DNA from: Thermodesulfobacteriota bacterium
GTDB taxonomy: Bacteria > Desulfobacterota > RBG-13-43-22
DNA length: 64,000 nt
Reading direction: 5' to 3'
NCBI GenBank assembly: GCA_049520575.1
Contig: JBEKPQ010000015.1
Location: 17,527-81,526, forward strand
The translations under genes and the position numbers were made by a program. Every line of letters starts with the position of its first letter. Position 1 is the first letter of the stretch. Below the pieces are notes generated by a model. The model was not told the origin of the DNA. It did no database searches and saw only the letters and a program-made list of their open reading frames with translations. Of this stretch, positions 7,578-63,680 are shown piece after piece.

Positions 7578-7643
7578 GCACTATTTTTTTAAAACAAAAC
7601 CTTTTGCCTCTTTGGGGCGCCACGAAACATGAAAATAATTTTA

Positions 7644-7700
7644 GGATTCAAGGATTCAAGTGAAAAGCGTGGAAGTTAAAACCCTTGAATCCTTGAATCC
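7644..7700. repeat. GGATTCAAGGATTCAAGTGAAA element with a matching inverted arm (CTTGAATCCTTGAATCC), hairpin-forming
   Basis: 17-bp inverted repeats 7644-7660 and 7684-7700. Same family as 29550-29605 and the composite copies near trpD. Confidence 0.7.
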
Positions 7701-7722
7701 TATTTTAAGGAGAGGAGAGGGT

Positions 7723-8254: not shown

Positions 8255-9934
8255 TCAGTCTGGTACCGCTTTATTAATGATTATTAAGAATGGTTCTGCT
8301 TTTTTCACACCGATGACCCGGGTTCCGGGGATCTCTTGCCCCTTTTGATCAAAAAACAAAATCGCCGGAGGGCCGAAAAGTCCGAATCTTTTTAAAAAAG
8401 CATCCGTTTCCTCATTGGTCGAGGTCACATCTGCCTTCAGGAGCTTCACTCCTTTGAGTTTTTCTTTGACCCGGGAATCTCTAAAGGTCAAAACCTCCAT
8501 CTCTTTACAGGATACGCACCAATCGGCAGAAACATAAAGCATTACCGCTCGTTCTTGAGTCTCTTTTATCTGGGCCTCTAATTGATTGAGGCTGGTCAGG
8601 CGCTGAAAAGAAAGGGATGAGGTCAAGGGCGGAGAGATAACGGGATAAATGATCCAAAAGGCAACGGCCAACAGGAGTATTCCAAAAAAGACTTTGACCC
8701 ATTTCATCCAGGCCCCGGCCCTCGGCAACAAGGCCCCGGCCGAGGTCCCTATGATTAATAAGGGGACGCCCATGCCCAAGGACAGGGCAAATAAGGCCGA
8801 ACCACCCAGCCAGACGTCGTTTGTCCGGCTGATATAAAGTAAGGCCCCGGCTAGAGGAGCGGTGACACAGGGACTGATAATAATGGCCGAGAGCAACCCT
8901 ATGAAAAAGACCCCCACGAAGGTACCGGCCTTGAACCTGTTCCCGGCGGCGGTCAATTTATTCTGTATGAAAACAGGGAGCTGCAATTCATAAAGCCCGA
9001 ATATGGAAAGGGCCAGGGCCACAAAGATCAAGGCAAAGGCAATCAGCACCCAAATATTTTGCAGCGCATGGGAAATTAATCGGCCTGAGTATCCGGCCGC
9101 CACACCGGCTGCTGTATAGGTCAAGGCCATGCCCAGCACATAGGTCATAGAAAGGAGGAAGGCTCTTTTTTTTATCAGATCCTTCCCCTGGGCAATAATG
9201 ATACCGGAAATGATGGGGATCATGGGCAAAACACAGGGCGTAAAAGAAAGCAGCAGGCCAAATCCAAAGAAGCTTAAAATGATCCAGAAATAGTTATTGC
9301 TTTTCAAAAGCCCGAAGATCTCACCTCCACTCTCCCCTATCGAGGTGGAGGGAGATGCCTTGGAAAAAGCTCCAGGTTCTTCCATCCCTTGGAGGGAAGG
9401 GGTTGAAGGGAAGGGGAAGGGATTCAAATGAACTTTTTGGGTCTTGGGCGGATAACATAAGCCGGCATCGGAACAACCTTGATAAGTGATACTGAGGATT
9501 ATTTGTAAGGTTCTCGGAGACAGTGAGGTTATTGGTATTATAATAACCGCTTCCTTACGGAAGATTTCCGCTCGGCCGAAGTATTTATCTTCTTTAACCT
9601 GGCCGGGTGGAAATTGAGGAGAGCCAATTTTTGTCTGTCTAGTTTCAACAGCAAATTTGAATTTATCCCGATACAGGTAATATTCTTGGGCAATCTGGAA
9701 ACGGATTTCAATCTGGCCGGCCTTGAGCAGGCGGGCTTGAAAGGAAAAGGCTTGTTCGGGTCTTAAAGGCTGACAATATACGGCCTGACACAGAAAAAGG
9801 ATTATAAAGAAAGATAAAATGAAAAAATGCAGGGTAAGACAAAAAGAAAAGTTGCCTTGGGATGTTGAACCTTGAACTTTGAACCTTGAACCTTTTTTAG
9901 GCTTTGAGCCTTGAGCCTTACACCTTGAACTCAT
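8255..9934 (-). CDS. dsbD: thiol:disulfide interchange protein DsbD
   Basis: N-terminal DsbD-alpha (QGCSDAGLCYPP), central multi-pass membrane domain (CVLPMIP) and C-terminal thioredoxin domain (DWCVSCK). The 5' 90 nt overlap a TTCAAGG tandem array, so the start is uncertain. Confidence 0.8.
   Translation of the reverse strand: MSSRCKAQGSKPKKGSRFKVQGSTSQGNFSFCLTLHFFILSFFIILFLCQAVYCQPLRPEQAFSFQARLLKAGQIEIRFQIAQEYYLYRDKFKFAVETRQTKIGSPQFPPGQVKEDKYFGRAEIFRKEAVIIIPITSLSPRTLQIILSITYQGCSDAGLCYPPKTQKVHLNPFPFPSTPSLQGMEEPGAFSKASPSTSIGESGGEIFGLLKSNNYFWIILSFFGFGLLLSFTPCVLPMIPIISGIIIAQGKDLIKKRAFLLSMTYVLGMALTYTAAGVAAGYSGRLISHALQNIWVLIAFALIFVALALSIFGLYELQLPVFIQNKLTAAGNRFKAGTFVGVFFIGLLSAIIISPCVTAPLAGALLYISRTNDVWLGGSALFALSLGMGVPLLIIGTSAGALLPRAGAWMKWVKVFFGILLLAVAFWIIYPVISPPLTSSLSFQRLTSLNQLEAQIKETQERAVMLYVSADWCVSCKEMEVLTFRDSRVKEKLKGVKLLKADVTSTNEETDAFLKRFGLFGPPAILFFDQKGQEIPGTRVIGVKKAEPFLIIINKAVPD
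9850..9934. repeat. tandem octamer array (G[TC]TCAAGG-like units) of the GGATTCAAGG family
   Basis: Minus-strand reading: gttcaaggtgtaaggctcaaggctcaaagcc...ggttcaaggttcaaagttcaaggttcaac. Confidence 0.7.
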
Positions 9935-29088: not shown

Positions 29089-29542
29089 TCTGGCTTTTTC
29101 AGCTTTTTTTTGACCTTTTTTTTGTAAAGGGCCCGTTTCAGGGCGCTGATGCGGTCGATAAAAAGGATGCCGTCCAGGTGATCAATCTCATGCTGCAGGA
29201 CCGTGGCCAGGACTCCTTCCCCGCAAATCTCCATTGGTTTCCCCTTGGCATTCAGCCCCCGGACTTTTACCTTGGCCTTTCTTTTGACCTCCGAAAAATA
29301 TTCCGGCACACTCAGACAGCCTTCTTCTAAGGTCTGCTCTCCCTCAGCGTCAATAATTTCCGGATTAATCAGGAAGGAGGGTTTTCGGACCTCTTCCCTG
29401 GGCGTTGTATCAAAGACGATGAGCCGTATCGGTCTTCCTACCTGAGTGGCGGCCAGTCCGATCCCCGGGCTATGTCCTTGACCGGTTCCGCCTTCTTTTG
29501 CAGGACAGGATCAGGGTATTTGTATATTTCAAGTAAGGCCAT
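29085..29542 (-). pseudogene. def: peptide deformylase with an internal frameshift/deletion
   Basis: Frame A from ATG 29542 gives MALLEIYKYPDPVLQKKAEPVKDI, then RGSDWPPLR and a stop. The -1 frame continues with motif 1 GIGLAATQV, motif 2 EGCLS and motif 3 QHEIDHLDG. About 19 residues between KDI and GIGLAA are missing. Confidence 0.55.
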
Positions 29543-29549
29543 AAAATCT

Positions 29550-29605
29550 GGATTCAAGGATTCAGGGATTCAAGTGAAAGGCTTGGAAATCAATCTCATG
29601 AATCC
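29550..29605. repeat. GGATTCAAGGATTCAGGGATTCAAGTGAAAGG ... ATGAATCC element (same family as 7644-7700)
   Basis: Sequence identity to the 7644-7700 element. Lies immediately upstream of the def start. Confidence 0.65.
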
Positions 29606-33824: not shown

Positions 33825-33896
33825 CCGTCTGCTCAACCAATCCCTATTCGTGGTGCCCGCACAGACGGGTATAAGTGTTTAGTTCGAAAATAAGAA

Positions 33897-33998
33897 TGTT
33901 GAATTTCGAACACCGAATTTCGAATCATGAATGGATTGGTCTCGTTTTAACTTCGACATTCAATATTTGTGTAATTTGATATTCGACATTTTCATACC
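33897..33998 (+). promoter_or_regulatory. copy 2 of the conserved upstream element (TGAATTTCGAACACCGAATTTCGAATCATGAA...GATATTCGACATTTT)
   Basis: Aligns with the elements at 1736-1833 (reverse complement) and 38193-38288. Precedes the CbbQ-like gene. Confidence 0.6.
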
Positions 33999-34092
33999 TC
34001 ATGGTGCCCTGCTAGGAGCAGGAGGGTTTAATAAGAAAAACGACCTTCCATTCCGGTTGTAAGAAAGGAGAAACTATGATAGCCTTCCTTTT

Positions 34093-34938
34093 ATGGAAAC
34101 CGTCAAGATTGAAGGGGTAACCCTATATCTAAGTCATCCCGACACCCTGCCTTTAGATTGGGTTGGTCAGCCCGATCTAATCGACCAGGTCTTGGCCGCT
34201 TGGCTGGTGGTGGAGGAAAAGGACCTGCCTTTGCATCCCCGGCTGATCGGCAAACCTGGGGTAGGAAAAACCACCCTGGCTTATGCCGCAGCCCGAAGAT
34301 TGGGACGGGAAATCTATTTCTATCAGGCCACCATGGATACCCGGCCGGAAGACCTGATCATTACTCCGGTGATCGCTGAGCAGGGGAAGATCCATTATAT
34401 GGCCAGTTCCTTGGTCACGGCCATGATTCGCGGCGGGGTCCTGATCCTCGATGAAGGCAACCGGATGAGTGAAAAGAGCTGGGCCTCTTTAGCCCCCTTA
34501 TTGGACAACCGTCGCTATGTGGAGTCCGTGGTTACCGGCATCAAGATCCCGGCCCATCCGGAGTTTCGATTCTGTACCACCATGAACGACGATGCCAGTA
34601 CCTTTGAGTTGCCGGAATATATCCATTCCCGGCTGCAGCCCCAGATTTTTATCGATTTTCCCGAACCGGAAGAAGAACGACTGGTCATGAAAAGGAATCT
34701 GCCCTTTGCCCCGGAGGATATCCTTGATTATGTGGTTCATTTTCTTCAAAGAGCGCATCAGGCCCAAGAACGCTTTACGGTTCGGGACGGTATCAATATC
34801 GCTCGCTATGCCCTGAAGTGTTTGGAAGGCCGTCAGATCCTCAGGAAGGTCGCCTTAGAAGAACGCAAACTCCTCACCCTGCGACTTTCCATTGAAATGA
34901 TTTTAGGAGAAAAGGCCCTGGACTTTTGGCCCTATTAA
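34093..34938 (+). CDS. CbbQ/NorQ/NirQ/GvpN-family AAA+ ATPase (MoxR-like)
   Basis: AAA_5 Walker A (GKPGVGKTT) and Walker B (VLILDEGNR), 281 aa. Confidence 0.75.
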   Translation: METVKIEGVTLYLSHPDTLPLDWVGQPDLIDQVLAAWLVVEEKDLPLHPRLIGKPGVGKTTLAYAAARRLGREIYFYQATMDTRPEDLIITPVIAEQGKIHYMASSLVTAMIRGGVLILDEGNRMSEKSWASLAPLLDNRRYVESVVTGIKIPAHPEFRFCTTMNDDASTFELPEYIHSRLQPQIFIDFPEPEEERLVMKRNLPFAPEDILDYVVHFLQRAHQAQERFTVRDGINIARYALKCLEGRQILRKVALEERKLLTLRLSIEMILGEKALDFWPY

Positions 34939-35034
34939 CTGTAGACAAACTCGTAAAAAGTGAAGGGCGATGGGTTTTCTTTTCATGTTTGGCATCACAT
35001 GATTTTTTTGTAAAAAGGGCTAATTTTTAAAGAT

Positions 35035-36123
35035 ATGCCGATGAGGGACATCTACCAAGAAATAGACCGGGAACTCGGTCAAAATAAGGAAGTGATCCTG
35101 GCCACTATTGTTGCCCGGAAAGGGTCAACTCCCCGCGCTCTGGGGACCCAGTTTTTGATTCGGCCCGACGGGTCTTTTTGGGGAACGATCGGAGGCGGAA
35201 AGGTGGAGGCCGATGTTCTGGCCGAAGCCCCAAGGGTTTTCGCGGAGAAGAAAAACAGGATCTTCCTTTTTCGATTAACCGGCGAGGAAGCGGCCGAGAC
35301 CGGAATGATTTGCGGGGGCGAGCTTGAAATCTATCTGGAATTTTTTTCCGGACGGAATCCTTTTCACCGGGATTTTTTTAAAAAGATATCCGAGTTTCGG
35401 AAATTCGGCCAACCCGGCCTGATAGTAACCCTTATGGAGGAAGGAAAATCAACAGGCCGTTCTGATGACAAATACCTTTATGTGCCGGGGGAAGAACAAG
35501 GACTTGAAAACGTGCCTTGGATAACCCCTGTTCTGGAACACATTCCCCGGATCCTTTCGGGCCAACAACCGGCTTTGTTGATGGCTGAGGTTCAAGGGGA
35601 AAAAAAGAAATTTTTTCTGGAACCTATAATAGCCCCGTCCCATTTATACATTTTTGGGGCCGGTCACGTTTCTCTATATCTGTGTGCCTTGGCCAAAACG
35701 GTTGGATTTCAGGTGACGGTTTTGGATGACCGGGCTGAATTTGCCGATCGGCGGCGATTTCCTGATGCGGACGACCTTGTAGTCCGGCCGTTTGATCAGA
35801 TGCTGAAGGATTTTCCGATTGAGCCCAATGCTTTCGTGGTCATCGTAACCCGTGGTCATCTGCACGACCATATGGTTCTTCGAGAGGTCTTGAAAAACCC
35901 TCCACGTTATATCGGGATGATCGGCAGCCGGCATAAGAAAGAAATTATCTTCACGGCCCTGCGGCAGGAAGGGTTTTCTGAGGACCTCATTCAATCCATC
36001 CATACTCCTATCGGACTGGACATCAGGGCCGAAACGCCGGAGGAAATCGCCGTTTCCATCGTAGCCGAGCTCATCCAGGTCAGGGGTTCTGGAAAAACCA
36101 AAAAGAAAAAAATACCGACCTGA
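35035..36123 (+). CDS. XdhC/CoxI-family molybdenum-cofactor insertion chaperone-like protein
   Basis: N-terminal XdhC_CoxI motif (ATIVARKGSTPRALGTQFLIRPDGSFWGTIGGGKVEADV) and C-terminal Rossmann-like XdhC_C (YIFGAGHVS). Confidence 0.8.
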   Translation: MPMRDIYQEIDRELGQNKEVILATIVARKGSTPRALGTQFLIRPDGSFWGTIGGGKVEADVLAEAPRVFAEKKNRIFLFRLTGEEAAETGMICGGELEIYLEFFSGRNPFHRDFFKKISEFRKFGQPGLIVTLMEEGKSTGRSDDKYLYVPGEEQGLENVPWITPVLEHIPRILSGQQPALLMAEVQGEKKKFFLEPIIAPSHLYIFGAGHVSLYLCALAKTVGFQVTVLDDRAEFADRRRFPDADDLVVRPFDQMLKDFPIEPNAFVVIVTRGHLHDHMVLREVLKNPPRYIGMIGSRHKKEIIFTALRQEGFSEDLIQSIHTPIGLDIRAETPEEIAVSIVAELIQVRGSGKTKKKKIPT

Positions 36124-36178
36124 TCCCTCGATGCTAGGATCATCTTTTAAAAGCTAACTCAATTCAAAGGAGTACATT

Positions 36179-38116
36179 ATGAGTTCATTAAGCCATATTC
36201 TGTCACCCATTACCATCAAATCCATGACCCTGGCCAACCGGGTGGTTATGCCCCCTATGGGAACGAATTTGGGCAATGACGATGGAACAGTCAGCGCCGA
36301 AAACCTGGCCTACTTGAAACGCCGGGCCAAAGGCCAGCAGGGATTGATCATCACGGAAATAACCGCGGCTCACCCCGGAGGGATCGTCACCCCGAATCAA
36401 CTGGGGGCTTACGATGACCGGTTCATACCAGGATTGAAGAAAATGGTATCCGTGGCCCACGAAGCGGGAACCAAGATCGCCATGCAGATCCATCATGTCG
36501 GCCGGGAGAGTATATTCCTTTTGAATCAGGGAAAGGCTGTGGGGCCGTCGGCGGTCCCGAGCATCGTCTATCGAAGGACCCCTCGGGAGATAACCCTGGA
36601 AGAAATTCAGGAAGTGATCACCGGTTTTGGAGCGGCGGCAGACCGGGCCCGGCAGGCTGGCTTCGATGCGGTGGAAATCCACGCTGCCCACGGTTACCTG
36701 CTGATGCAATTCCTCTCAGCCATATCGAATCGACGGACGGATGATTACGGAGGAGCGACCTTAAAAGACCGGTCGCGCTTTGTGATTGAGGTCATCGAGG
36801 AAGTTCGACGCCGGGTAGGCCCTGCCTATCCCATATCGGTGCGGGTTTCCGCTGAAGAACACATCCGTGGGGGATACACGGCCGAGGACATGCAGACCAT
36901 CCTGCCGGATATGGTCCGGGCCGGAGCTGACCTGATTCACGCTTCCATCGGCACCCACGGGAGCCCAGGGGCCATAACCCAGGCAACGGCCGAGCACGAG
37001 CCGGGATTCAATGCCCAACTGGCCAGAAAAATGAAAGATGTCGTTGACGTTCCTGTTATCGCTGTAGGACGGTTCAACGATCCGGCCCAGGCTGACGAAG
37101 TAATCGCCCGGGGAGATGCGGACCTGGCGGCCTTCGGCCGGCAATTTCTGGCTGATCCCGATTTCCTGATCAAGGCTAAGTCGGGGAGATCGGCCGACAT
37201 CCGCAAATGCATTGCCTGTAATCAGGGGTGCATCGAGCGAGAAATGCTCGGGGAAGGAAATATCCGCTGTTCGATCAATCCCGAGACCGGTCAGGAGACG
37301 ATTTATCCGCAAGGCCCAGCGGCAAAACCTAAAGACGTTTGGGTAGTGGGATCAGGCCCCGGAGGTCTGACCGCAGCCTTCGAAGCAGCGCGGCTGGGAC
37401 ACCGTGTGACCCTTTTCGAGCAGGAAAAGGAATTGGGAGGCCAGATCCGCTATGCACGGATACCGCCTTACAAAGCAATCTATGGAGAGTGGATTGATTG
37501 GCAGATCGGCCAGGTCAAGAAGGCTGGGATAACGATAAAAAATAACACCGAGGTCAGCGAGTCAATGTTAAAGGCTCAAAGACCCGAACATGTCATACTG
37601 GCGACAGGTGGTGAAAAGATTGTACCCAAAATTACAGGTATCGACAAAAGCCACGTCTGCGACGCTTGGCAGATTTTGAGTAAGAAAGTTGCCCCTAAGA
37701 ATCATGTTCTAGTGGTTGGCGGTGGATTAATCGGTATGGAGACGGCCGATTTCTTAAGTGAGCAAGGGAGTCAGGTAACGCTGGTTGAGATCCTGGAGCG
37801 GTCACCGGTACGAAAGATCACCTCTCACGGGTTCATGGTGCACCAGCGTCTTCAGGACAGGAAATGCCGTTTGCTCTTTAGCACGGCCTTAACGGTCATC
37901 GGCGACGGAAAGGTGGAGATCGAAACCAAAGGGGAAACATCGACACTGTCTCCTGTCGATCAAGTGGTCTTAGCCGTGGGCTTGAAGCCCAGAGATGAAT
38001 TAAAAGAGGTATTGGAGGCTTTGAAGATTCCCTATGTGGTAATTGGTGATGCCCGCCAACCCCGGCGGATATTTGAGGCCGTGGAAGAAGGGGCTCGGGC
38101 CGCCTGGGAATTGTAG
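36179..38116 (+). CDS. Old-Yellow-Enzyme/2,4-dienoyl-CoA-reductase (FadH)-like FMN + Fe-S + FAD/NAD(P) oxidoreductase
   Basis: OYE TIM-barrel, a 4Fe-4S Cys cluster (CIACNQGC...C) and a C-terminal dinucleotide-binding domain (VVGSGPGGLTAAFEAA). Confidence 0.85.
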   Translation: MSSLSHILSPITIKSMTLANRVVMPPMGTNLGNDDGTVSAENLAYLKRRAKGQQGLIITEITAAHPGGIVTPNQLGAYDDRFIPGLKKMVSVAHEAGTKIAMQIHHVGRESIFLLNQGKAVGPSAVPSIVYRRTPREITLEEIQEVITGFGAAADRARQAGFDAVEIHAAHGYLLMQFLSAISNRRTDDYGGATLKDRSRFVIEVIEEVRRRVGPAYPISVRVSAEEHIRGGYTAEDMQTILPDMVRAGADLIHASIGTHGSPGAITQATAEHEPGFNAQLARKMKDVVDVPVIAVGRFNDPAQADEVIARGDADLAAFGRQFLADPDFLIKAKSGRSADIRKCIACNQGCIEREMLGEGNIRCSINPETGQETIYPQGPAAKPKDVWVVGSGPGGLTAAFEAARLGHRVTLFEQEKELGGQIRYARIPPYKAIYGEWIDWQIGQVKKAGITIKNNTEVSESMLKAQRPEHVILATGGEKIVPKITGIDKSHVCDAWQILSKKVAPKNHVLVVGGGLIGMETADFLSEQGSQVTLVEILERSPVRKITSHGFMVHQRLQDRKCRLLFSTALTVIGDGKVEIETKGETSTLSPVDQVVLAVGLKPRDELKEVLEALKIPYVVIGDARQPRRIFEAVEEGARAAWEL

Positions 38117-38192
38117 GACGATAAAATGCAGAATTCGTTCGTCATAAAGCGTGCGGCGTTCGGGGAAATCAAGAACAAAGAAAATATGACTA

Positions 38193-38288
38193 TTGAAATT
38201 CGAACACTGAATTTCGAATTATGAAGGGAGTTCGATTTGATTTCCTTCGATATTCAGTATTCGTTATTCGATATTCGACATTTTTGGC
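38193..38288 (+). promoter_or_regulatory. copy 3 of the conserved upstream element
   Basis: ATTGAAATTCGAACACTGAATTTCGAATTATGAAGGGA...TTCGATATTCGACATTTTT. Ends 3 nt before ATG 38292. Confidence 0.6.
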
Positions 38289-38291
38289 TTC

Positions 38292-39632
38292 ATGTCCCAG
38301 CCTGCCGGCGGACATGAGACTTTAGAGAAGATTAGTAAAAAAACGATAATGTCCATCCCCGCTTTGGTCAAGGTGCTCTGTGTCTTCGGTTTGGTTCTCG
38401 TTCTTAACCGAGTACGCCTTGGTTTGAGTCTCTGTCTCTTCATCGGTTCTTTGGTGCTTGGTATCTGGATGCAAATGGGTCCCGCCGATCTGGTTTGGAG
38501 CGCCCTTCAAAGTCTCGTGCACATCCAGACGATCAGCCTGATCCTGATTGTCGGATTTATCCTGGTTATCAGCTGTCTGATGAAAGAGAGCCGGCATCTG
38601 GACCGGATCGTGGAAGGCTTTGCCCGGATTTCGGGTGATGATCGTACCGCAAGTTTGGTGTTGCCGGCCCTGATCGGGTTACTTCCCATGCCCGGGGGCG
38701 CGCTTTTCTCTGCACCCATGGTTGAAGCCTCCCTTAGTAGATACCCTTTAACCGGCGAATATCAAACAGTAGTCAATTATTGGTTCCGGCATATCTGGGA
38801 ATACTGGTGGCCGCTCTATCCGGGGGTGGTGCTGGCAGTGGCCTTACTGAAGGTGGAGATGTGGCGTTTTATTGCCATCATGGTGCCTATGACCATTGTG
38901 ATGGTCTTGGCCGGCGTGATCTTCATTCTAAGACCCATCAGACAAGAGTCCATTTCTCGGAAGAAGGTCTTCTCCTCATCAGGGCTGAAAAGTTTTTTGT
39001 GGGAGATCATGCCAATCCTCGTTGTTGTTATGGTCATTATTCTCCTGGCGGGTCTGACCGGCCTTTTGAATCTTTCCGGGATCAATATCAACCTGCCTGG
39101 GGCCGTGTCTATTCTTCCCGGTCTCCTGGTATCCGCCATCTGGGTATGCGTAGTCAACCGTATTCATTTCAGGCAATTGACGACAGCGGTCTTTGATCGG
39201 AACATCCTTTTCATTATATTTTTAGTGGCAGCCATTATGATCTTCCAGGGGATTATGAAAGACAGCCGGGCTGTGGTCGAAATTCGAAACGAACTTATGG
39301 CCTACAGGATTCCTCTTCTGCTGGTTATCATCATCATGCCTTTTCTGTCTGGTCTTATCACTGGAATTGCCATCGGATTTGTGGGGACCTCTTTCCCTCT
39401 GATCATTCCTCTGTTTCCTGTTTATCCCCTTATTAATTTTCTCTCCTATGCTGCACTGGCCTATGTTTTCGGCTTTGTGGGCATGATGCTATCTCCGGTC
39501 CACCTTTGTTTCCTGGTCACCAAAGACTACTTTAAAGCCAATCTCCTGGGCAGCTATCGCCTCATCATTTACCCCACGTTGAGTGTTTTATTAACGGCCG
39601 TTGTTTTCTTTGTAATTTCCAGGGCGCTCTAA
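38292..39632 (+). CDS. polytopic membrane protein (about 12 TM, DUF401-like; function unknown)
   Basis: Long hydrophobic ORF. The alternative start at 38349 cannot be excluded. Confidence 0.5.
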   Translation: MSQPAGGHETLEKISKKTIMSIPALVKVLCVFGLVLVLNRVRLGLSLCLFIGSLVLGIWMQMGPADLVWSALQSLVHIQTISLILIVGFILVISCLMKESRHLDRIVEGFARISGDDRTASLVLPALIGLLPMPGGALFSAPMVEASLSRYPLTGEYQTVVNYWFRHIWEYWWPLYPGVVLAVALLKVEMWRFIAIMVPMTIVMVLAGVIFILRPIRQESISRKKVFSSSGLKSFLWEIMPILVVVMVIILLAGLTGLLNLSGININLPGAVSILPGLLVSAIWVCVVNRIHFRQLTTAVFDRNILFIIFLVAAIMIFQGIMKDSRAVVEIRNELMAYRIPLLLVIIIMPFLSGLITGIAIGFVGTSFPLIIPLFPVYPLINFLSYAALAYVFGFVGMMLSPVHLCFLVTKDYFKANLLGSYRLIIYPTLSVLLTAVVFFVISRAL

Positions 39633-42160: not shown

Positions 42161-42300
42161 GATTTGAGGGTTTAGACACTCGACTTTGTCGAGCTATAGA
42201 AAAGGTTCCCCTCCGGGGAACCCGGGATTTAACTTCCGCGCATTTCACTTGAATCCTTGACCCCTTGAATCCTGGGACCCTACTTAGTATTAATTAAAGA
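42161..42300. repeat. composite structured repeat (hairpins, GGTTCCCC/GGGGAACC stem, TTTCACTTGAATCC module)
   Basis: Shares about 70 nt (cgagctatagaaaaggttccc ... gggaacccggg.t.taacttcc...tttcacttgaatccttg) with 43381-43625. Confidence 0.65.
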
Positions 42301-42313
42301 AGGAGGACGGAAA

Positions 42314-43375
42314 ATGATTCAGGGAGCGATCGGGAAGGTCGTAAACAGAGAGGATCTGAGCCAGGTAGAGATGGAAGCGGTCATGAATGAGATCATGAGC
42401 GGGGAAGCTACTCCGGCCCAGATTGGGGCCTTTATCACGGCCCTCAGGATGAAAGGAGAAACGGTTGATGAGATCGTCGGCGCGGCGCGGGTGATGCGGG
42501 AGAAGGCCACAAAAATCCATGTGATCGACACCTCATTGAGCCTTGACCGTGACGAGATCAATGTTGATGCCGAGACGATTCTAGACACCTGCGGGACCGG
42601 TGGAGACGGCACCAACACCTTTAATGTTTCGACCGCTACCGCTCTGGTGGCTGCCGGAGGGGGTGTCAAGGTCGCCAAGCACGGCAATAGGGCCGTTTCA
42701 AGCCAATGTGGAAGCGCGGATGTTTTGGAAAACCTGGGAGTCAAACTCGACATCAGCCCTCTGGATGTTGAAAGATGTATACGTGAGATCGGCCTGGGGT
42801 TTTTATTTGCCCCTCTTTTTCATGGGGCCATGAAATTTGCCGCCGGGGCCAGAAAGGAGATAGGTTTGAGGACCATATTCAATGTCCTTGGACCATTGAC
42901 CAACCCGGCCGGGGCGACAGCCCAGGTCCTCGGGGTCTACTCCCCCGACTTAACGGAAAAAATGGCCCAGGTCCTCGGCAAATTGGGTTCAAAAGAGGCC
43001 TTTGTGGTCTGTGGGGAAGGAACCTTCGATGAGATCAGCATCTGCAGCCCGACCCGGATCGCTCATCTCAAGGACGGAGAGGTCAAAAGTTATCAAATTA
43101 CCCCCGAGGAGTACGGATTTCAAAGGGCCGCGATTGGTTCTATCAAAGGCGGAGACGCCCAGGAAAACGCCCGGATCATTCGAAACATACTGGATGGCCA
43201 GGAAGGGGCCAAACGGGATATGGTCCTGTTGAACACAGGCGCAGCCTTTGTGGCCGCCGGACTTGATCAGGACCTGAAGGCCGGCATCCAACGGGCCAGG
43301 GAAGTGATTGATTCGGGCAAGGCCAAACTTAAGCTTGAACAGTTGATTGCATTTACCAACAGTGTTAGCTCTTAA
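42314..43375 (+). CDS. trpD: anthranilate phosphoribosyltransferase
   Basis: Motifs [14 protein letters not shown] and KHGNRA. Confidence 0.95.
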
Positions 43376-43380
43376 TACAC

Positions 43381-43625
43381 AAAAGGGTTCGAGGATTCAA
43401 GGGTTCGAGGGTTCAGCCGCTCGGTCCGCTCGGCTCCGCCGAGCTTCTGAAGAGGCTCCCTCTTGGGAGCCGATCCGGCGAGCTATAGAAAAGGTTCCCG
43501 TACGGTCGGCTTTGCCGACCTAAAAGGGAGGCTTCCGAATGGAAGCCGGATCGGGGAACCCGGGTCTAACTTCCATGCCTTTCACTTGAATCCTTGGACC
43601 CCTGACCCCTTGAATCCTTTTTCAG
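43381..43625. repeat. longer composite copy of the same structured repeat, with two extra inserted hairpins
   Basis: Contains ggattcaagggttcgagggttcag, gccgctcggtccgctcggctccgccgagc, and hairpins ggtcggctttgccgacc and ggcttccgaatggaagcc. Confidence 0.65.
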
Positions 43626-46772: not shown

Positions 46773-47526
46773 TACCTATCTCAACAAAAGACTGGCTAAA
46801 AAAGATATCCTGCTCATGACCCATATCGTCCTTGGATACCCTTCCTGGGAGACCTGCCTTCGGGTCGTCGAGGCCATGGTTGAGGCCGGGGTAGACCTGA
46901 TGGAAATGCAAATCCCTTTTTCCGAACCGATGGCCGACGGGCCGGTGATCCTTAGGGCCAATCAGAAGGCCTTGAAAAATGGGGTAACCGTGCAGAGATG
47001 TCTTGATTTTGCCCAGGAGGTGGCCAGACGATTCGATATCCCTTTTCTTATCATGAGTTATTACAATATCCTTTTCAAATACGGGGTCGAACGATTCGCC
47101 CTCACCTTGGCGGAAAGAAACCTCAAGGGGGCCATCGTCCCGGACCTTCCGCTGGAAGAAGGGCGGGAGTATCTCCAACGGATGACAGAGTATGGGCTTT
47201 CACCTATCCTTTTCTTTTCGCCTACCACGCCGGACGACCGGATGCGATATATCGCTTCCCTGGCCAAAGGTTTTATCTATTGCCTGAGCCGAAAAGGGGT
47301 CACCGGTGCCGACACCCAATTTTCTTCCGAACTGGCCGGTTATTTGGCCAGATGCCGCCAAGCCACTTCTCTCCCTTTGGCTCTGGGTTTTGGGATTAAA
47401 GAGAAAGCCGATATTGATTTTATTAAAGGCAAAGCGGAGATCGCCGTCATCGGATCACAAACGATCCGGATCGTTGAGGATCAAGGAAGCGGGGCAGTGG
47501 GGGCTTTTATCCGCAGTTTAAGATGA
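46756..47526 (+). CDS. trpA: tryptophan synthase alpha chain
   Basis: TrpA TIM-barrel (EMQIPFSEPMADGPVI). Start overlaps the trpB stop by 17 nt. Confidence 0.9.
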   Translation: MNIPFDTYLNKRLAKKDILLMTHIVLGYPSWETCLRVVEAMVEAGVDLMEMQIPFSEPMADGPVILRANQKALKNGVTVQRCLDFAQEVARRFDIPFLIMSYYNILFKYGVERFALTLAERNLKGAIVPDLPLEEGREYLQRMTEYGLSPILFFSPTTPDDRMRYIASLAKGFIYCLSRKGVTGADTQFSSELAGYLARCRQATSLPLALGFGIKEKADIDFIKGKAEIAVIGSQTIRIVEDQGSGAVGAFIRSLR

Positions 47527-54791: not shown

Positions 54792-54820
54792 AACATCTAT
54801 ACCTTTAAGAGGGAACTTTA

Positions 54821-54929
54821 GTTCTAAAACAACTTATTTCTCCTCAATTGTCCGATTGTCAAGTTGATTTTAATTTTACCTTATTATACCCTCTTTTTTC
54901 ACCCAACCCAAACTGAAAAATCCCTTTGG
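54821..54929. repeat. copy 1 of a 110-bp direct repeat (GTTCTAAAACAAC/GTTATTTCTCC...CTGAAAAATCCCTT) at the island boundary
   Basis: Aligns with 56604-56732 at about 85% identity, apart from a 40-nt insertion in copy 2. Confidence 0.7.
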
Positions 54930-56496: not shown

Positions 56497-56603
56497 AGCA
56501 TCCTCCTTCCCTCTACATCGAAGAACAGGCTCAATAAAGGAGCCAAGTCTCCGTTTAACCTATGGTCAATGCCTTCCTTAATATCTCAAAAGAGGGTACG
56601 CTG

Positions 56604-56732
56604 GTTCTAAAACAAGTTATTTCTCCCCATTTGTCTGATTGATTTTAATTTAACCCTCGGTTTAACCCATGGTTAAACCCAATTATGATGCTCTCTTTTT
56701 CACCCAGCCTTAACTGAAAAATCCCTTCTTTG
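56604..56732. repeat. copy 2 of the 110-bp direct repeat, upstream of the carboxyltransferase gene
   Basis: See 54821-54929. Contains an extra palindromic insert GGTTTAACCCATGGTTAAACC. Confidence 0.7.
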
Positions 56733-57996: not shown

Positions 57997-58160
57997 GAAT
58001 TGTACCTTTCGTCTATCAGGCCTAAGGGAACCAAGGAGACGTTGTTCGGGAGTTCAGTAATTAACATGGGCTTTCGCCAATCCTTTTCTTTTCCCCCACC
58101 ACCCCGGACAGTCGTTTTTATTTTCTTCCTTCTTCTCAAAGCCTGGTTCAGTAAATTTTA

Positions 58161-63585: not shown

Positions 63586-63680
63586 ATATGGCCGTCATCG
63601 GTTCCCAGACGATCCGGATCGTGGAGGATCAAGGAAGTACGGCAGTGGAGGATTTCATCCGCAGCTTGCGCTGGAGAGTT
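63586..63680 (+). pseudogene. duplicated fragment of the trpA 3' end
   Basis: About 85% nt identity to 47435-47521. It encodes AVIGSQTIRIVEDQGSTAVEDFIRSLR, versus TrpA's AVIGSQTIRIVEDQGSGAVGAFIRSLR. Confidence 0.55.

Follow-up and report, generated by a model that had tools for sequence, protein, structure and literature searches.

Operator-like elements of a Thermodesulfobacteriota contig as probable members of a dispersed family of heptad-built extragenic palindromes

The closest described precedent for the element considered here is a set of paired hepta-, octa-, and nonanucleotide sites in Geobacter metallireducens, reported in three classes as "putative global regulator binding sites" for which IHF/HU was proposed without a test (Aklujkar et al. 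2009, PMC2700814). Each of those sites consists of 3–5 tandem repeats of 7–9 nt (GTTGCTYN, TCTCCGTSY, or MTYCTGA) (PMC2700814). A second point of comparison is the repetitive extragenic palindromic (REP) sequence, which is reported mainly between unidirectional and convergent open reading frames (ORFs) (Di Nocera et al. 2013, PMC3733652). The element lies in a 64,000-nt stretch from a Thermodesulfobacteriota bacterium (GCA_049520575.1, contig JBEKPQ010000015.1, positions 17,527–81,526; hereafter the window), in which an initial annotation had described an operator-like sequence of roughly 100 bp upstream of three operons. We interpret its three copies, designated A, B, and C, as members of a multicopy, noncoding, intergenic family of palindromic repeats of the bacterial interspersed mosaic element (BIME)/REPIN/miniature inverted-repeat transposable element (MITE) kind, and we assign this interpretation a probability of roughly 0.72.

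The three copies lie where they had been placed, at 33897–33998 (+), 38193–38288 (+), and 1736–1833 (−), and can be aligned over the core assigned to them. A 25-nt core, GAATTTCGAACACYGAATTTCGAAT, has three matches in the window at up to 3 mismatches, as compared to 0.00 expected from 100 shuffles. A profile hidden Markov model (HMM) of the element, representing 86 nonredundant relatives, matches the window at exactly three sites, which are copies A, B, and C. Each copy is an imperfect palindrome in which nnnnGAA heptads on the left and TTCnnnn heptads on the right flank a variable center, the right end reading ..GATATTCGACATTT. The heptad periodicity is evident at all three copies as period-7 runs of five to six GAA (left arm) or TTC (right arm). 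The window contains one further period-7 run, an unrelated CCTTGAA array at 9867–9890; no such run appears in 50 shuffles, and the window gives none at periods of 5, 6, 9, 10, or 11 and one at period 8. The two GAATTTCGAA dyads of copy A begin at 33901 and 33915, which sets them 14 bp apart from start to start, or two heptads, rather than the 16 bp originally reported. An A-run borders the window copies on the left and a T-run on the right. The resemblance among copies extends beyond the 100-bp core into small GC-rich flanking modules, with copy A reaching ~181 nt (33846–34026). The coordinates of all parts are collected in Table 1.

The left-arm heptads of the 86 relatives have the consensus T-R-T-C-G-A-A, those of the right arm have its complement, and the mean complementarity of the arms is ~70%. 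The unit is laid out as two arms of ~35–45 bp, with four to six heptads each, inverted around a center of 15–45 nt whose sequence varies between subfamilies, and small GC-rich hairpin modules are often attached to it. Many relatives carry a near-perfect "master" inverted repeat of ~30 nt, AATGTCGAATATCGAACAAGGAATTTCGAAT plus its complement, which is perfect at loci L096, L044, and L013. The window copies represent a variant subfamily that has CAC(C/T)GAA in place of CAAGGAA.

The element is multicopy and dispersed. The 21-mer TTCGAACACNGAATTTCGAAT occurs exactly at 13 loci in a set of species-representative genomes. On the Desulfobacterota side, these loci are found on three contigs of MFD04492.bin.2.115, a metagenome-assembled genome (MAG) related to that of the window, and in another "delta proteobacterium" MAG, a Thermodesulfobacteriota MAG, and a Desulfobulbales MAG; further loci are found in MAGs labeled Saprospiraceae, Chryseolinea, Bacteroidia, and Bacteroidales. 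A two-anchor pattern retrieves 105 metagenome loci, nearly all of one architecture and in 90 distinct flank contexts, and the carriers come from metagenomes of sediment, soil, and groundwater. One subfamily reaches 92% identity over at least eight distinct, unrelated loci and has extra modules and ragged outer boundaries. Clustering is also observed. Contig L026 is built of 114-nt units in tandem with their arms alternating, and additional arrays occur in the fetched loci at about 1 per 20 kb, which equals the density of the window (3 per 64 kb), both figures being array densities rather than copy counts per genome. Many metagenome contigs end at an element, and four independent assemblies of the window's species break off inside copy A. 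The family is common in metagenomes and breaks assemblies, and it is unusual in that its arms are made from a 7-nt word that recurs in MAGs labeled as two phyla. No matching description of it was found in Rfam or in the literature searched by sequence strings. BLAST searches and scans of viral contigs and plasmids yielded no element, returning nothing or chance matches inside coding sequence.

Among the records carrying a Bacteroidota label, the elements of L013 and L009 are intergenic palindromes beside genes for a two-component regulator propeller domain, alpha-2-macroglobulin, DUF2911, DUF1761, and a LytTR response regulator. Because these flanking genes are identified by Pfam only generically, the Bacteroidota assignment of both loci rests on the record labels. 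A Bacteroidales record (L002) contains the 21-mer with five in-phase GAA heptads at 439–469 and 2741–2771, inside the Por_Secre_tail (type IX secretion system C-terminal) coding sequence of two paralogous 630-aa proteins. These two matches could be due to chance or to an element absorbed into coding sequence, and they may not be homologous to the intergenic copies.

The orientation of the element relative to genes is mixed. Orientations were counted with a crude ORF caller for those elements with both neighbors called, and they comprise 44 co-directional settings (26 with both neighbors on the minus strand and 18 with both on the plus strand), 10 convergent, and 6 divergent. The orientation is therefore not fixed. 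Two copies of the window's own subfamily behave accordingly: that of L007 has the 3′ ends of ssb and hemA on its two sides, and that of L004 is inverted relative to its downstream gene. There is likewise no association with particular genes. The 263 flanking ORFs lack functional coherence. They match 153 Pfam families in one batch and 129 in the other, never more than five to a family, and have no common function. The elements sit in short spacers, mostly co-directional or convergent, beside unrelated housekeeping genes.

Orthologous sites show that the element is polymorphic for presence and absence. In the relative MFD04492.bin.2.115 (L125 and L126), the genes follow the order found in the window, PriA-Gate-AAA5-XdhC-OYE-DUF401-PabB, and AAA5 shows 98% protein identity. 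At site A, the 181 nt of the window that comprise the left module, the palindrome, and the right module (33846–34026) are replaced in the relative by 21 unrelated nt, and the flanks align perfectly. At site B, the relative retains the element, with differences at ~9 of the 45 nt of the left arm and near identity in the right arm and the sequence downstream. To the left of the element at this site, the window has 53 nt that the relative lacks. The arms turn over faster than the surrounding DNA, and this turnover is arm-specific. At site C, the element is present in both genomes, with the orthologous copy located in L003 between flanks that share 90% identity across 2.7 kb. Where AAA5-XdhC pairs occupy a different genomic context, in L127 (92% identity) and L128 (89%), no element lies upstream of AAA5. 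Because copy A is missing in the relative and no copy precedes AAA5 in L127 or L128, the element is dispensable for the AAA5 cluster. As a fallback, the initial annotation had proposed a REP-like mobile unit that delimits the three-gene cluster. This proposal is right in kind, but copies A and B do not delimit the cluster as a unit, because the relative holds the same cluster in the same place with copy B only.

The element shares features with several known systems. Like REP, BIME, and REPIN sequences (Bertels & Rainey 2011, PMC3116915; Di Nocera et al. 2013, PMC3733652), it is extragenic, multicopy, ~100 nt long, and hairpin-capable, and it occupies mainly co-directional or convergent spacers. 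Its 90 contexts show the high-copy, extragenic placement in mostly unidirectional or convergent spacers that is typical of REPs. Hairpin-capable inverted doublets, mosaics with short modules, tandem clusters (L026), and presence/absence differences between close relatives are found as in REPINs and BIMEs. However, its arms are arrays of 7-nt units, whereas a REP is a single palindrome of 20–40 nt, and its words occur in MAGs labeled as two phyla, whereas REP sequences are usually lineage-specific. The ~30-nt master repeat is equivalent to the terminal inverted repeats of MITEs and foldback elements, and the element also resembles these in its variable center, noncoding nature, dispersal, and variable number of subrepeats. 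Unlike them, it has ragged outer boundaries, no target-site duplication at the one available filled/empty pair, and no parent insertion sequence (IS) with matching ends in the loci, plasmids, or viral contigs examined. The G. metallireducens sites (PMC2700814) are similar in being multicopy, intergenic, opposite-strand pairs at variable distance in a member of the Desulfobacterota. They differ in their repeat words and were described as unique to one genome, whereas the element is widespread; class 1 sites are also IS insertion targets (PMC2700814), which is not seen for the element. The element is not a strict member of the REP, REPIN/BIME, or MITE families and is best filed as an undescribed variant of extragenic palindromic repeats.

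Two further candidates were rejected. Integron attC sites do not fit, as no R″/L″...L′/R′ cores (RYYYAAC/GTTRRRY) are visible in the copies and the orientation is not uniform across loci. An apparent "composite transposon" in L034 is an assembly artifact; the whole contig (4387 nt) is a near-perfect foldback whose halves are reverse complements, which mimics two inverted copies around genes.

Several observations count against assigning the copies to a mobile repeat family of this kind. The sole filled/empty pair, at site A, shows no target-site duplication, and the boundaries of subfamily 2 are variable, with no sharp element end. Two species both keep copies B and C, and this retention would also fit a host function. 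The REP tags GTAG/CGTC occur at or below the shuffled expectation in 79 elements, with none in copy B and a single GACG in the left flank of copy A. No transposase family is among the 25 most common Pfam families of either batch, and no RAYT or other transposase was seen near the elements; both statements cover the 263 flanking ORFs. Folding shows no strand preference, the top strand being favored in 45 of 100 elements, and arm complementarity within an element does not exceed that between arms of different elements. Because no transposase, target-site duplication, or sharp boundary was found, we infer mobility from distribution alone.

In the mechanism that we favor for such a repeat family, spread or homogenization would occur in trans, by a putative recombinase or transposase specific for the terminal inverted repeat, with its heptad units, or for the hairpin form of that repeat. 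This spread would be assisted by slippage, template switching, or gene conversion between heptads. A transcribed unit could fold into an imperfect, AU-rich hairpin of ~35–40 bp, which may affect RNA processing or stability as a side effect rather than as a dedicated switch. The upstream position of the three window copies would reflect insertion into spacers between co-directional genes and not a common operator. A bolder and doubtful extension of this interpretation is that the TRTCGAA palindromes form a distinct class of nonautonomous elements, common to Desulfobacterota and Bacteroidota and unrelated to RAYT/REP, in which a putative dedicated protein reads consecutive 7-bp units. Similar palindromes, namely those built from GGATTCAA octamers (see below) and the Geobacter GTTGCTYN and MTYCTGA sites, would then be sister systems with their own readers. 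If a heptad-reading protein exists, it would represent a new recognition system for dispersed bacterial repeats and might explain the similar Geobacter elements, which were never followed up.

It is also conceivable, but unlikely, that a chromosomal protein, either a nucleoid-associated "global regulator" or a ribbon-helix-helix protein that coats the heptads, binds the arrays as double-stranded DNA, and that the elements organize DNA or modulate many promoters. Consistent with this possibility, the conserved unit is the heptad word TRTCGAA rather than element-specific base pairing, neither strand is favored in folding, the same words recur in MAGs labeled as two phyla, and IHF/HU binding has been proposed for the architecturally identical paired sites of G. 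metallireducens (PMC2700814). The absence of strand bias and of arm covariation, in tests that are weak, keeps this alternative live. However, no protein emerged as a candidate, a close relative does without copy A, and copies between convergent genes have no promoter to regulate. In addition, a 7-bp period sets successive sites on different faces of B-DNA, and the tandem clusters and ragged mosaic boundaries are more like those of selfish repeats. Ribbon-helix-helix operator arrays, such as those of omega of pSM19035 and the related type Ib centromeres, do consist of contiguous 7-bp units in direct and inverted orientation. Arrays of the omega type, however, are single plasmid regulatory regions beside the genes that they control, whereas the element is dispersed over chromosomes without a linked gene. 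Resemblances to the Spo0A 0A-box (TGNCGAA) and to an H-NS motif are presumably coincidental, since they concern the wrong taxa.

A structured RNA within mRNAs, serving as a 3′-end stabilizer, an RNase III processing site, or a weak bidirectional terminator, is more improbable still. Single strands of copies A, B, and C fold into long imperfect hairpins of −24.4, −29.3, and −20.5 kcal/mol, which is better than shuffled sequences (z = −1.7, −3.3, and −2.5, respectively). Most copies lie in co-directional or convergent spacers and are likely transcribed as a result of this placement. The A-runs and T-runs beside the window copies would suit such a role, and roles of this type are reported for REPs (PMC3733652). 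Nevertheless, the opposite strands of the window copies fold about equally well, and the excess of top-strand wobble-compatible mismatches is small (272 vs 223). Given the absence of both strand bias and element-specific arm complementarity, there is no positive evidence for selection on the hairpin itself, although the common descent of all arms from one master inverted repeat leaves the complementarity and covariation tests with little power. Rfam gives 0 matches in the window, with only weak, generic miRNA-hairpin matches far below the gathering score. Related candidates were also rejected. RNAalifold finds no pairs in the right GC-rich module, which argues against a conserved RNA structure there; the copies are not flagged by a terminator scan, and the stem beside the T-run is AT-rich, which argues against an intrinsic terminator; and the lack of folding asymmetry argues against strand-specific RNA selection. 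A sigma-54 or sigma-70 promoter in the GC-rich module or right arm was likewise discarded, the GG-N10-GC spacing being unfit by eye and a promoter scan being at chance level.

The original proposal of a specific operator, at which a dimeric or tetrameric regulator would coregulate the DAG-kinase-like gene, the AAA5-XdhC-OYE cluster, and the DUF401 membrane protein, is highly improbable: the three window copies do lie upstream of genes in one orientation, an agreement with a chance of about 1 in 4 at n = 3, and do contain TTCGAA palindromes, but ~90 other contexts hold the element in both orientations beside unrelated genes, which is the pattern that had been named in advance as speaking against an operator, one copy lies between convergent genes, copy A is missing at the orthologous site of a close relative and at other AAA5-XdhC loci, and no regulator gene adjoins copy A or copy B. 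No common operator connects the lipid kinase with the AAA5-XdhC-OYE cluster and the DUF401 protein, and a false regulon is thereby removed.

Table 1. Positions of the heptad-built element and its modules in the window, and of a second palindromic family
Feature	Position	Strand	Basis or remark
Copy A, left GC-rich module ATTCGTGGTGCCCGCACAGACGGGTATAAGTGTTTAG	33846–33882	+	Starts 22 nt past the stop codon of the Gate-family gene; similar module left of the L007 copy
Copy A, left arm, six in-phase nnnnGAA heptads including two GAATTTCGAA dyads	33883–33935	+	GAA run 33894–33931, period 7; HMM match 33887–33996
Copy A, variable center (hairpin loop if extruded or transcribed)	33936–33950	+	Fold; center differs among subfamilies
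Copy A, right arm, degenerate TTCnnnn heptads, end GATATTCGACATTTT	33951–33998	+	Alignments
Copy A, right GC-rich module TCATGGTGCCCTGCTAGGAGCAGGAGGG	33999–34026	+	End of the segment missing in the relative
Copy B, window-specific 53-nt segment preceding the palindrome; possible left module	38124–38176	+	Missing in the relative (alignment)
Copy B, heptad palindrome: left arm 38180–38229, center 38230–38243, right arm 38244–38288	38180–38288	+	GAA run 38195–38225, TTC run 38246–38276; HMM match
Copy B, right GC-rich module, TCATGTCC..GGACATGA hairpin, then GACTTTAGAG	38290–38328	+	Runs into the start of the ORF when ATG 38292 is used
Copy C, heptad palindrome, upstream of the DAGK/YegS-like gene (754–1686, −)	1736–1841	−	Alignment, core search, period-7 run, HMM match
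Copy C, right GC-rich module TTCATAGCGTCTGCCTCAAACGGTCATGAGGATAGAG	1704–1740	−	Alignments
GGATTCAA-octamer family	7632–7705, 29538–29593, 42216–42293, 43372–43415, 43553–43622; L007 7877–7940		Also in a related MAG

The called length of the DUF401 ORF downstream of copy B is probably excessive. Similarity to Pfam DUF401 begins at residue 28, and the 20 leading codons (38292–38351) align with noncoding right modules of the other copies; the true start is therefore probably ATG 38351. The earlier description of copy B as ending 3 nt before the ATG of this gene is correct for ATG 38292 but does not hold for this likelier start. Downstream of copy A, the only good Shine-Dalgarno sequence before AAA5, AAGGAG at 34066–34071, serves a 14-codon upstream ORF (ATG 34076, MIAFLLWKPSRLKG followed by a stop) that overlaps the AAA5 start at 34093 (METVKIEG..., conserved in homologues). 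Because a similar overlapping frame is present in L125, L127, and L128, translational coupling between the upstream ORF and AAA5 is possible.

The window and its relatives contain other repeats. A second dispersed palindromic family has arms of two to three tandem GGATTCAA octamers inverted around a conserved center, GTGAAAAGCGTGGAAGTTAAAA, the same tandem-repeat-armed design as that of the TRTCGAA element. A third short-tandem-repeat element, at 9860–9930, lies at the junction of two minus-strand ORFs and consists of a direct CCTTGAA array (GAACCTT, GAACTTT, GAACCTT, GAACCTT) followed by GAGCCTT twice. Arrays of nTCAGAA/TCAGAAT heptads are found beside or near TRTCGAA elements at L007 7800–7835, at L004 4536–4575, and upstream of the element in L094, and their reverse complement fits the class 3 heptad of G. 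metallireducens, MTYCTGA (PMC2700814). Finally, three pairs of direct repeats, 85–90% identical and 1.8–16 kb apart (47440–47519 vs 63588–63667, 54807–54926 vs 56590–56727, and 47192–47235 vs 58066–58109), look like paralogous gene segments rather than members of the TRTCGAA or GGATTCAA repeat families.

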